Shown here: piece by piece, positions 34,239 through 45,155 of the stretch
Layout of the letters: the number at the start of each line of letters is the position of its first letter
Numbering within the stretch: position 1 is the first letter of the stretch
Notes under the pieces: generated by a model
What the model was told of the DNA's origin: nothing
Databases searched by the model: none
What the model saw: only the letters and a program-made list of their open reading frames with translations
Made by a program: the position numbers and the translations under genes
Source: Escherichia phage Tls
Strand: one strand, 5' to 3'
DNA: 49,902 bases
Sequence record: AY308796.1

Positions 34239-35165
34239 TTATAATAAGTCACTTGCCTTGTAAAGTCTCCGCTCTATTCCATTTTTGAATTTACCGTTAA
34301 CTGGTAACATTACGTCTAATTCGCGATCATCGGCAGCAATCAAAGTATCGCGATCATTAGCATGGCACACAACGCGCATTTTACGATCTCCTTTGTATCT
34401 GTATGCAACAATTTCAAGATTTGAAGGTGAGAAACACGCCCATACTTCTTGCCCCGTCGCCAGGTGTATATGTTGCGCATCAATCCAATCAACGCAAAGG
34501 TAAATTGTTTTGTCAGTCTTGCCAGTTACCGCAACGCTTCCTCGCGTGTAATCTTTCGCGTAAAAACTGCTTTTACCTTCCTCGTTGACGAAAAGAATAT
34601 TGCACATATCATCATCCAATTCATCACTATGCACCAGGTGGCAAGGAATGGCGTGTATATGCTCGCAATATCCATTGTCATGAGTTTTTACGCCAACTTG
34701 ATACGATTCGCCGTCTAATGGATAAAACGCCTCAAAAACGCTTAGATTTGTTATTTCCATGCGTTCAGTTTTATCCATCACCTCAACACATTTTTCATGT
34801 GGTGCTTGCGATCCGAAATTGTAACCTGAGTCACGTTTTGCCGCTTTGTTAGCCTTGTTGACAACCTCAACAGGAACCAAGTTTAACCATTCGCCTAGAG
34901 TGTCGATTGCTTCACTGTAATTTTCACCACGTATGCGCATGAATAATCCGATCCCTGAATCATTCCCGCATTGGTTGCAAATGTTGCCGCCGTCGCCTTT
35001 CTCGTTGATTTTGTCAGTCCAACGAAAGCGATCTTTACCGCCGCAATAAGGGCAAGGCTGATGCTTTCCGTTAAAGGTTAATTGAGGAATATCGCAAAGT
35101 TTCATTAATGCCGCTTGCCACATGCCGCGCATCTTTGGGATTACTTCTTCTTTTTGATAATGCAT
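34239..35165 (-). CDS. DNA primase (zinc-ribbon type)
   Basis: N-terminal CPYCGG...CNQCG zinc-binding motif; acidic core; SD ggagg; adjacent to helicase. Confidence 0.6.
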   Translation of the reverse strand: MHYQKEEVIPKMRGMWQAALMKLCDIPQLTFNGKHQPCPYCGGKDRFRWTDKINEKGDGGNICNQCGNDSGIGLFMRIRGENYSEAIDTLGEWLNLVPVEVVNKANKAAKRDSGYNFGSQAPHEKCVEVMDKTERMEITNLSVFEAFYPLDGESYQVGVKTHDNGYCEHIHAIPCHLVHSDELDDDMCNILFVNEEGKSSFYAKDYTRGSVAVTGKTDKTIYLCVDWIDAQHIHLATGQEVWACFSPSNLEIVAYRYKGDRKMRVVCHANDRDTLIAADDRELDVMLPVNGKFKNGIERRLYKASDLL

Positions 35166-42586: not shown

Positions 42587-42972
42587 AAAGAAAATTACTG
42601 GCTATTATGATGTGCATTGCTCTTTCTGGTTGTTCAGCTTCAAGCGTGTTACCTGGTCTGATTGGTAGCAAGCCTGATATAACGGCACAGGCTGGAGCGG
42701 AGAATGTGAAACAGACTGTTGGTGTAACCGCAAAGCAGGATACATCAAGCAAGCAGGAAACCACATTCAAAGAATCGGAAGTTGGTCAAGTTGACACATC
42801 CAATAAAAAGCAGGTGAGTACCTCAAGCATCAAGGCTGATAACATTACGGCGGAAAGAATAGAAATTCGCAATAATGACGGCCTTAACGTTCCGGCAATC
42901 GCAATGGGTATATTGATGTTCATTGCTGGTATGCTGGCAGGTTGGACGCTAAAACGTAATAAGGCGGCATAA
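42583..42972 (+). CDS. unimolecular spanin (u-spanin)
   Basis: N-terminal lipoprotein signal with lipobox LSGC and C-terminal TM anchor [17 protein letters not shown]; overlaps endolysin stop. Confidence 0.65.
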
Positions 42973-42989
42973 GCCGCCTTTTCTTTTAC
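42961..42989 (+). terminator. rho-independent terminator containing the spanin stop codon
   Basis: Stem aaggcggc/gccgcctt followed by TTCTTTT. Confidence 0.55.
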
Positions 42990-43123
42990 TCAAATTTTCT
43001 AACATGAATTAGCAATTCACCATCATGATTTGTCAGTTGATGCTCTTGATCCAAAAATGCTCGCATATCGCTGTAAAGCAACAGCATTAACGCATAGACA
43101 AAATCATCATGCGGAATTTGCAT
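42986..43123 (-). CDS. small hypothetical protein (45 aa; ORF track extends to 43183)
   Basis: In-frame ATG 17 nt before upstream stop; the longer 65-aa version would overlap 43107-43499 by 77 nt in another frame. Confidence 0.3.
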   Translation of the reverse strand: MQIPHDDFVYALMLLLYSDMRAFLDQEHQLTNHDGELLIHVRKFE

Positions 43124-43499
43124 TGCTGAACTTTCTTTCAAAATAAGATCTATCAAATGCTGGCTTGCTGAATAATTCTTCATCGCTCATTTTCTCAATG
43201 TTCATCATCTCCCACACATAACGATTGGAATCACCTTCCAGGCTATGCAACTCAAAATTAAACGGCCTTTTCATCTTGTTTTTGCACCAGTACACGCAAT
43301 GAACGCCGTCAAGATATCCATAACCCATCATTCGCGCTATAAACTCTTTGCTTGAGCTTGAAGCGAAATAGCGGGGCGTTACCCCCGCATTTTTGGCGAG
43401 CCTTTCACATTCACGGTGACGGAATATAAATCTTGCTAACTCCTGGCGGTTGAATTTCTCGCGAGACTCGCAAAAGCGATACAGATCTAATAAGAACAT
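43107..43499 (-). CDS. hypothetical protein (130 aa)
   Basis: ATG with SD ggggt. Confidence 0.5.
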   Translation of the reverse strand: MFLLDLYRFCESREKFNRQELARFIFRHRECERLAKNAGVTPRYFASSSSKEFIARMMGYGYLDGVHCVYWCKNKMKRPFNFELHSLEGDSNRYVWEMMNIEKMSDEELFSKPAFDRSYFERKFSNANSA

Positions 43500-43501
43500 G
43501 A

Positions 43502-45082
43502 TTACCCCATTAACGCCGGATTTACATAAACAAATTTACCAACGCTGCAAACATAATTCTTTTCTTCAAGCATTGGCAATAATTGTTCCTCAATTCGTTT
43601 CATCACGCCTGATTGACCTGTAAACGGCTTAACCTTACGCGCACTTTCATAGATAGCTCTTGCATTGGTAACGCCTTTATTTTGACGTGAGATCTTAATG
43701 ATGATTTCAATTAACTTGCTCATTTCGGCATCATCGCCAGCGTGACCGGAAGCATTCGCGGCGTTGATATATGTTTTGCTTAATTCGCTGAACATCACCA
43801 AAGCCTCTTGCATTGTCTCAACTTCAATTTCTCGCGACTTTTGCGGCGTACCGTTTGGATTAAACCAATTGCGGATCGTGTGCAATACTGACGCAATGCG
43901 GATCACTTGCTTATCCATTTTACCCAAAGCACCACGCAACATTGTATGTGAATATTTCCCGCCGTCTGCTAAATCTGGCTCTAATTGCTGGCGAGCAATA
44001 TTAAGAACACGCATTGCAGACCGTGACGGCTTCAATACAACATTTTGCTCAGTCATGATGTTATGAATCAACTGGAAATATTGCGCCTTTAATTCTTTAT
44101 CAACTGGCGTGTAATCAAGATCACCATTTTCATCAATAAATACACGCTCGCCTAACATTGTTTTTTCACGTACAAGCAAGAAACGTTCACTAACACCGAT
44201 ACCCCGCGCCCCTGCATCCATGATCCCTTTTATCGTTTCATCCTGGGCAATTACGCTCATGCAGCCCAACGCAACAAAACTCATATTGTTTTCAGAGTTG
44301 GCGCGAGCTATTGAAACGTGTCCGGCGTCCCATGCTTTTAGAACCAATTCGCTGTTAGTCTTGCGATCACTATTAGCGTAAGTCAATCCGAGTAAGCTGT
44401 TGATGCTTGTTGCTTCATCGGAAATGACAGCAAAGTTACCCTGGCGATTGTTGATCTTTGCTAACCCTTCCGGCGTGGTGTCTGATACCGGAAAAACGAT
44501 ATCGCACATTTTTTCTAACTTTTCCTCTAATTCCTCCTTTTCCTCAAACAACGCCGCTAACTCAGTGCCGGAACGTTCAGCTTTCAATTCCTTTTCAACG
44601 CCTTTTAATTTAGCTGCGATCTTCTTTCGCTCTTTCTTGCGTTGTTCGTTGATTCGCTCAACTTCACAGACCATTGGCGCAATAGCAAGGCTGTTGATTG
44701 CTGATTTACCAGTTGACGGAGGCTGACTGGTTACAACATAAAGCGCAGTTGGTTGTTCAGTGCCGTGGTACTCAACCTGGAAACGTCCAACCATAGCGGC
44801 GGAAACGCAACCAATGAAATGCATATAGGCCGATGATTCAGGAAATTGAACAGATTGCGCAATGCTACGTGACAGTTTACCCACAACATCAACATCATTA
44901 CCCAAAGAGATCACAGGATAGCGGTCATTAGCGCCGTTGATATCCTTTACAGGTTCCCAAAAGCTGGACGATTGGCGGTATCCGTTAGACTGAATAGCAA
45001 CGCGAAGCGGCGATGTTCCCTGCGATTCTGCAATGGCTATAACTTGTTGAGGTGTCAATTTGTTGGTGTCAAAGTCAAACAT
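43502..45082 (-). CDS. large P-loop NTPase-like protein of unknown function (526 aa)
   Basis: Walker A-like QPPSTGKSA; Lys/Glu-rich coiled-coil insert; perfect SD aaggag; first gene after a motif promoter. Confidence 0.6.
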   Translation of the reverse strand: MFDFDTNKLTPQQVIAIAESQGTSPLRVAIQSNGYRQSSSFWEPVKDINGANDRYPVISLGNDVDVVGKLSRSIAQSVQFPESSAYMHFIGCVSAAMVGRFQVEYHGTEQPTALYVVTSQPPSTGKSAINSLAIAPMVCEVERINEQRKKERKKIAAKLKGVEKELKAERSGTELAALFEEKEELEEKLEKMCDIVFPVSDTTPEGLAKINNRQGNFAVISDEATSINSLLGLTYANSDRKTNSELVLKAWDAGHVSIARANSENNMSFVALGCMSVIAQDETIKGIMDAGARGIGVSERFLLVREKTMLGERVFIDENGDLDYTPVDKELKAQYFQLIHNIMTEQNVVLKPSRSAMRVLNIARQQLEPDLADGGKYSHTMLRGALGKMDKQVIRIASVLHTIRNWFNPNGTPQKSREIEVETMQEALVMFSELSKTYINAANASGHAGDDAEMSKLIEIIIKISRQNKGVTNARAIYESARKVKPFTGQSGVMKRIEEQLLPMLEEKNYVCSVGKFVYVNPALMG

Positions 45083-45109
45083 CTAAAAATCTCCTTCTTG
45101 TTGCCGCTA

Positions 45110-45155
45110 ATTATAACGGCAACATTCTACAGCCTTTTAGCAATTCGTGCTATTT
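45110..45155 (-). promoter_or_regulatory. motif promoter (minus): AAATAGCACGAATTGCTAAAAG + 18 nt + TATAAT in hairpin loop
   Basis: Motif reverse complement at 45135-45155; -10 at 45110-45115; hairpin gttgccg/cggcaac. Confidence 0.55.

Follow-up and report, generated by a model that had tools for sequence, protein, structure and literature searches.

gp71 of phage TLS, a stand-alone DUF3987 protein with a predicted MCM-like motor and a probable replicative helicase of T1-like phages

Our analysis of gene 71 of Escherichia phage TLS (sequence record AY308796.1; the window is the whole stretch analysed, 49,902 nucleotides) leads us to propose that its product, gp71, is probably the phage-encoded replicative, or replication-fork, DNA helicase of TLS and the T1-like phages, and a stand-alone member of the DUF3987 family. 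The proposal is supported by family membership, by the fold, by the conservation of catalytic residues, and by the primase and DnaB N-terminal fusions found in relatives. Judged from its predicted structure, gp71 is a DUF3987 protein with an MCM-like motor and not a member of the MCM family, and DUF3987 itself is a bacterial and phage branch of the MCM-type (pre-sensor-2-insert) AAA+ clade. At the family level gp71 was already known, since public records annotate it as DUF3987 or 'DNA helicase'. The open reading frame of 526 amino acids is present exactly as an earlier note on this DNA, written from the sequence without database searches, had described it, with its ATG at 45082 and its stop codon at 43502..43504 on the minus strand.

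Family membership, fold and conserved residues

gp71 matches Pfam DUF3987 (PF13148) with an E value of 5.9e-43 and 147.9 bits, against a gathering cutoff of 27, and residues 81–432 align with positions 3–352 of the 364 in the profile. It also matches PHROG 2373, 'DNA helicase' (E 4e-253), and the product of close relatives is called 'DNA helicase' in RefSeq. In the supplementary table of the TLS re-annotation, gp71 is entered with the same coordinates, strand and length as a putative ATPase of the DUF3987 superfamily, with HHpred similarity to 6RAW, that is, MCM-like (PMC11447400). The earlier note had treated the gene as one of unknown function without a clear assignment, which these Pfam, PHROG, RefSeq and table entries contradict. 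Profile search and structure prediction, the route it had recommended, gave the DUF3987 match and a confident AAA+ model closest to MCM. The homology to a well-characterised replication or packaging ATPase that would overturn its view was thus largely found, in the family of AgaPH and in the MCM-like fold, although not to a packaging ATPase.

The AlphaFold2 model, computed from a 30-sequence alignment, has a mean predicted local distance difference test score (pLDDT) of 89 and a predicted template-modelling score (pTM) of 0.87. Conservation was assessed in an alignment of 30 homologs at 37–88% identity and in a broader one of 36 sequences at 24–40% identity. Residues 1–97 are modelled as helices and loops only. 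The AAA+ core, whose predicted fold is closest to that of MCM, opens with strand beta1 followed by the Walker A motif and its K126. Here the earlier note had rightly singled out the Walker A-like PSTGKS; the full motif is a deviant Walker A, with Q in place of the first G (QPPSTGKS, compared with the GDPxxxKS type of MCM), and six of its eight residues (Q120, P121, P122, G125, K126 and S127) are invariant in the 30 homologs. In the same alignment D222 of Walker B is replaced by Ala in several distant homologs (ISAEAD versus ISDEAT), which is unusual for a Walker B, and the next Glu is invariant.

With archaeal and eukaryotic MCM proteins (superfamily 6, SF6; PF00493) gp71 shares an S-x-R-F arginine finger, a hairpin before sensor 1 and a C-terminal winged helix, although sequence identity is only 11–17%. 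Judged by topology, the hairpin at residues 255–270 would take the position of the MCM pre-sensor-1 hairpin, and S298-E299-R300-F301, just before beta5, would be equivalent to the arginine finger that in MCM proteins carries the 'SRF' motif. Down to 24% identity, the residues that remain invariant in the broader alignment are K126, E223, G232, R260, G296, R300, E306 and K388, and among them are the catalytic residues that an active ring ATPase should have. The C-terminal region had been described in the earlier note as alpha-helical; it is mostly helical but finishes with a winged helix that contains beta strands and resembles the winged helices of ORC/Cdc6.

When 1.84 billion representatives were searched exhaustively with HMMER, 2,511 relatives of gp71 emerged at E<=1e-3. 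The nearest are stand-alone proteins of 510–560 residues; distant ones reach 600–970 residues and carry the DUF3987 module in their C-terminal half. Among the long relatives scanned, the N-terminal fusions include a DnaG-type CHC2 zinc finger (P0132), PriCT_2 (P0231) and the DnaB N-terminal domain (P0199). The last of these proteins, of 666 residues, combines the primase-interacting N-terminal domain of DnaB with DUF3987 in place of the RecA-type motor, and P0132 consists of a DnaG CHC2 zinc finger followed by DUF6371 and DUF3987. Of the contextual arguments for a role as replicative helicase, the one from these chimeras is the strongest: the module has been swapped in for the RecA-type motor of DnaB and is fused to primase domains, which speaks for its working as a replicative helicase. 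By the same reasoning Kazlauskas et al. placed DUF3987 proteins among the replicative helicases of SF6, as divergent members with a winged helix-turn-helix at the C-terminus, and fusion to a primase, or a position beside a primase gene, is common in the family (PMC4889955; PMC5862659).

The family has one characterised member, AgaPH, a PriCT–DUF3987 helicase from a Seonamhaeicola mobile element (PMC11724360). Its polarity is opposite to that of MCM despite the MCM-like fold of the family. AgaPH is oligomeric, unwinds 5'-tailed and forked DNA in the 5'->3' direction with ATP or dATP, is inactivated by substitution of the Walker A Lys (K213) or the Walker B Glu (E297), and binds and stimulates its primase-polymerase (PMC11724360). 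gp71 has in common with it the DUF3987 module, a small C-terminal domain, a long spacing between Walker A and Walker B, and the two essential residues, present as K126 and E223 and invariant among homologs; the relative with AgaPH-type architecture (PriCT_2 and DUF3987, P0231) is 33% identical to gp71 (E 6e-36). Unlike AgaPH, gp71 has a short helical N-terminus and no PriCT domain, and it comes from a virulent phage that uses the host polymerase. The partner of AgaPH is an adjacent AEP primase-polymerase, whereas gp71 is likely to work with a primase of the zinc-ribbon (T7/DnaG) type whose gene lies 8 kb away.

Other MCM-related AAA+ helicases of phages and mobile elements offer a looser comparison. 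BcMCM, a primase–MCM fusion of a Bacillus cereus prophage (PMC2715239, PMC3273815), and the self-loading Cch and SaPI Rep proteins (PMC9371898) resemble gp71 in having no canonical MCM N-terminus and in being linked to primases, but they belong to different families (a true MCM AAA+ domain and DUF927, respectively). They have a primase fusion, or an origin-binding C-terminus with adjacent iterons, whereas gp71 is a stand-alone protein and iterons were not found near its gene. Phage N4 dns and the SF6 protein of mycobacteriophage Corndog are, like gp71, phage DUF3987 members assigned to replication (PMC4889955). N4 dns is reported to be essential for replication (PMC4889955), and it has a C-terminal AEP primase domain that gp71 lacks.

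What is the nature of the Lys/Glu-rich insert that separates the Walker motifs? The earlier note had called it a coiled coil, and this is borne out: charged residues make up 53% of residues 138–195, compared with 25% of the whole protein, the stretch is modelled as two long antiparallel helices (126–168 and 172–191) of which the first continues the Walker A helix, and the family profile matches only coiled-coil proteins there. It is the only large insert in the model, at a site that differs from the position of the MCM helix-2 insert. Because the Pfam profile runs through it ungapped, with 352 residues aligned to 350 profile positions, the insert appears, as far as sequence can tell, to be a feature of the whole DUF3987 family. 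The Walker A Lys and the Walker B Glu lie 97 residues apart in gp71 and 84 in AgaPH (K213, E297). In MCM proteins this spacing is shorter, about 60 residues.

A model for gp71 at the replication fork

From these data we infer the oligomeric state, helicase activity, polarity, partners and essentiality of gp71 in TLS and T1, and propose the following model. Subunits of gp71 would assemble into a ring, probably a hexamer, with ATP held at the subunit interfaces between K126 and E223 of one subunit and R300, the SERF finger, of its neighbour. Sequential hydrolysis would drive the pre-sensor-1-type hairpin, with R260, along single-stranded DNA in the central channel, unwinding the fork. The gp56 primase, the phage single-stranded DNA-binding protein (SSB) and host DNA polymerase III would complete the replisome, and the C-terminal winged helix and the coiled-coil arm may act as docking or DNA-binding elements for loading or for contact with the primase or the polymerase. 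According to the re-annotation, TLS encodes the zinc-ribbon primase gp56, the superfamily 2 (SF2) helicase gp58, a VRR-NUC nuclease, SSB and recombination proteins, and no DNA polymerase (PMC11447400). We found no DnaB-type helicase in the TLS genome.

Several observations weigh against this proposal. Single-sequence and profile searches of the PDB with gp71 retrieved no solved helicase, only chance matches and coiled-coil matches to the insert; no MCM chains were among them, and no DUF3987 structure was detectable by sequence or profile in the PDB copy searched. For the link to MCM, the basis is consequently the predicted structure together with HHsearch/HHpred results from the literature. 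Pfam MCM (PF00493) gave no match to gp71 at E<=1. MCM proteins have an N-terminal oligonucleotide-binding (OB)-fold/zinc domain and a helix-2 insert hairpin; in the model of gp71 the OB/zinc domain is absent and helix 204–214 runs uninterrupted, without the helix-2 insert, a coiled-coil hairpin following the Walker A helix instead. We therefore do not count gp71 as an MCM family member. A primase fused to the protein or encoded immediately upstream, which is typical of DUF3987 proteins but not obligatory, was not found, and gp56 lies about 8.3 kb away with other modules between. A search for an origin around gene 71, covering iterons, inverted repeats and AT-rich stretches, yielded only short two-copy chance repeats and no origin-like iterons. 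Finally, where the TLS paper deals with replication, it assigns the part of replication helicase to gp58, with no discussion of gp71 (PMC11447400). Literature searches on T1 amber genes 1 and 2, on host dna-gene needs, on essentiality and on defence-escape mutations in the gene turned up nothing usable.

A ring helicase of the DnaB/T7 gp4 type (superfamily 4, SF4) would have a RecA core and a DnaB_C domain, which gp71 does not show, and this assignment was rejected on fold and family evidence. Could gp71 instead be mainly an initiator or loader, which recognises or melts the phage origin through its winged helix, perhaps with gp70, and recruits host DnaB? The ORC/Cdc6-like winged helix would suit such a role, as would the position of gp70, a small winged-helix protein whose gene begins 2 nt past the gp71 stop, and the DnaB N-terminal domain on one relative; the annotators of phage Sazh asked of this gene 'helicase or DNA rep initiation factor?'. 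Yet the matches to ORC/Cdc6 cover 80–100 residues of the winged helix and not the ATPase core, so that gp71 does not show the AAA+ core of the initiators and loaders DnaA, DnaC and ORC/Cdc6. It has, moreover, a pre-sensor-1-type hairpin with an invariant Arg, its characterised relative AgaPH unwinds DNA, and neither iterons nor an AT-rich origin was found near gene 71. We therefore regard a primarily initiating role as unlikely, with the proviso that the two readings exclude each other only in part, self-loading helicases such as SaPI Rep and Cch combining both functions. Of the three roles suggested in the earlier note (replication initiator, primase-associated ATPase, other NTPase), the part that stands is a replication-type AAA+ NTPase of a primase-linked family; its homology is to a helicase and not to an initiator.

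We think it improbable that gp71 is a recombination or repair motor, acting in branch migration or fork remodelling in the manner of ComM or MCM8/9 to produce the recombination-dependent concatemers of T1-like phages. TLS does possess a rich recombination module (an Erf-type recombinase, an exonuclease and a VRR-NUC resolvase), but gene 71 lies outside it, the fusions in relatives are to primase and DnaB N-terminal domains and none to recombination domains, and a phage deprived of gp71 would have no ring helicase of its own. That gp71 is a non-helicase AAA+ protein, whether a MoxR/RavA- or Mg-chelatase-like remodeller, an ATPase for packaging, or a factor for host takeover or anti-defence, is very improbable: its gene does sit among small genes of unknown function in an early block, but MCM proteins clearly outscore RavA and BchI, PADLOC and NCBIfam are blank, the terminase is encoded elsewhere in the genome, and the primase fusions together with the proven helicase activity of AgaPH favour DNA unwinding.

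Two of these variants were rejected individually. The packaging ATPase fails on fold and family evidence, with no Pfam or PHROG terminase match to gp71; in close relatives the large terminase subunit is annotated within the first 25 kb of the genome, away from gene 71. A defence or anti-defence reading was dropped because the NCBIfam and PADLOC scans of gp71 gave no matches. As leads, the retron-Eco11 paper proved to concern SF2 helicases (UvsW, D10) and not DUF3987, and the Avs paper RecA-type helicases.

Gene 71 is an ordinary core gene of T1-like phages, probably one of replication; it already bears the labels DUF3987 and 'DNA helicase', and the present reading is of little consequence for annotation. 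None of the replication proteins of the T1 group appears to have been studied biochemically, and T1 or TLS in Escherichia coli would lend itself well to experiments on how an MCM-fold helicase works together with a bacterial polymerase. We speculate, with considerable reservation, that T1-like phages use a hybrid replisome in which a stand-alone MCM-fold helicase replaces DnaB, loads itself through its winged helix (perhaps with gp70) and needs no dedicated loader, moves 5'->3' as AgaPH does, and is directly coupled, through its family-specific coiled-coil arm, with the phage primase or the host DNA polymerase III holoenzyme. Were this doubtful extension true, gp71 would provide a tractable E. 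coli model for a reversed-polarity MCM-type ring in a bacterial replisome.

Upstream signals and neighbouring genes

The features of gp71 and its surroundings are collected in Table 1. The earlier note's perfect Shine-Dalgarno sequence is present, and its description of the gene as the first after a motif promoter is a fair one, because a copy of the TLS repeat (described in PMC11447400) and a perfect TATAAT precede gp71. The repeat copy is exact and lies 71 nt upstream of the ATG. A canonical sigma-70 scan upstream of gp71 found no promoter; the promoter-like element, a putative promoter, consists of the repeat and the -10 hexamer, with a non-canonical spacing to TTGCTA.

Table 1. Coordinates of gene 71, its predicted domains and motifs, and associated features in the window
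Feature	Position	Strand	Basis or remark
Gene 71 coding sequence, 526 amino acids plus stop	43502..45082	-	ORF list, Pfam DUF3987, PHROG 2373, TLS supplement
N-terminal small helical domain, residues 1-45; not an OB fold or zinc domain	44948..45082	-	DSSP of the AlphaFold2 model
AAA+ core, residues 66-305	44168..44887	-	
Walker A QPPSTGKS, residues 120-127	44702..44725	-	K126 invariant
Lys/Glu-rich antiparallel coiled-coil hairpin, residues 138-195, between Walker A helix and beta2	44498..44671	-	Model, composition, profile
Walker B FAVISDE, residues 217-223	44414..44434	-	E223 invariant
Beta-hairpin ahead of sensor-1 strand, residues 255-270, invariant R260	44273..44320	-	Putative assignment, from topology
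SERF motif, residues 298-301, R300 invariant; candidate arginine finger	44180..44191	-	Alignments
Helical lid, residues 329-405, conserved RG..GK.DK (R383 and K388 invariant); sensor-2 candidates	43868..44098	-	Alignments, model
C-terminal helical and winged-helix domain, residues 421-526	43505..43822	-	Also matches PHROG 7327 alone
Shine-Dalgarno AAGGAG	45091..45096	-	8 nt upstream of ATG
Inverted repeat of 8 bp, TGTTGCCG / CGGCAACA, 10-nt loop containing TATAAT	45099..45124	-	Sequence
Perfect -10 hexamer TATAAT	45110..45115	-	Read from sequence; 22 nt after the TTGCTA of the repeat
TLS 19-nt promoter-associated repeat, exact copy ATAGCACGAATTGCTAAAA (also given as ATAGCACnnnTTGnTAAAA)	45135..45153	-	Overlaps gp72 stop codon
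gp70, winged-helix protein of 130 amino acids; possible partner of gp71	43107..43499	-	Starts 2 nt after gp71 stop
gp56 primase (T7-type zinc ribbon, PHROG 510); likely functional partner	34239..35165	-	Listed in PMC11447400

The repeat occurs 23 times in the window, against 3.1 matches expected by chance. We surveyed 19 good copies (e.g., 4061+, 5136+, 30222+, 35240-, 45153- and 1523+) together with the 45 nt downstream of each. A -10-like hexamer follows the repeat (ATAGCACnnnTTGnTAAAA) at a fixed offset, 22 nt past TTGnTA, often in the extended form TGnTAnAnT. Within those 45 nt, 8 of the 19 copies have a perfect inverted repeat of 6–8 bp, compared with 6.9% of random windows, and in six of these eight the -10 hexamer falls in the hairpin loop. 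The arms vary from copy to copy with their complementarity kept (AAGGCACA/TGTGCCTT, AAGGCCA/TGGCCTT, GATGCGTG/CACGCATC and TGTTGCCG/CGGCAACA), and such differing yet complementary arms suggest that selection at these promoter-like sites may act on structure rather than on sequence. In its treatment of the repeat, the TLS paper mentions no hairpin (PMC11447400).

Contrary to the earlier note, gp71 does not lead the leftward gene block: upstream, between it and the right end of the window, there are at least 14 genes on the same strand and five further copies of the repeat. It heads only a smaller, repeat-delimited unit, gp71-gp70-gp69, which ends at a bidirectional terminator at 42961..42980. 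This terminator-like site is a GC-rich hairpin with a perfect stem of 8 bp, flanked on either side by T-runs, and it separates the rightward lysis cassette (holin, endolysin, spanin) from the leftward early block that ends with gp69.

Distribution among phages and anomalous records

Homologs of gp71 are present in 918 phage records and are full length in 899 of them, which places the reality of the gene beyond doubt. Escherichia phage LL5 encodes an identical protein (100%), and the gene is 98.6–99% identical at the DNA level to its counterparts in Citrobacter phages Sazh and Stevie, Escherichia phage U136B and numerous other phages. TLS is itself a T1-like siphovirus, and the ortholog of gp71 in T1 is T1p09. 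Protein identity is 59% to Tunavirus-type phages and 34–36% in more distant siphoviruses. Full-length homologs were found across the T1-like (Drexlerviridae) phages sampled, whose host genera include Escherichia, Klebsiella, Shigella, Salmonella, Citrobacter and others, and this wide spread fits a core gene.

In the C-terminal domain of gp71, residues 430–526 (43505..43795) also match another PHROG, 7327 (E 1.8e-38), whose function is unknown, and in Klebsiella phage KL (NC_049838.1, 6221..6508) an unannotated stretch encodes the winged-helix domain by itself, at 43% identity. Given this separate match and the lone copy, the domain would seem to be mobile or to be used independently.

In Shigella phage 2019SD1 (P0106), Citrobacter phage HCF1 (P0113, NC_054897.1) and Salmonella virus STSR3 (P0109) the gene appears to be in pieces or shortened; the shortened relatives measure 451, 395 and 349 residues, and HCF1 yields three tblastn pieces. 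Such truncated or split genes are probably frameshift or assembly errors and not real variants. Streptococcus phage MBBL140 (OR786094.1) and MG065673.1 with 13–20 other 'Campylobacter phage' records carry the gene and much of the genome, although they are assigned to Streptococcus agalactiae and Campylobacter jejuni. In these regions the records are 79–99% identical to TLS-like coliphages, and contamination by T1-like phages or a wrong host label seems likely.

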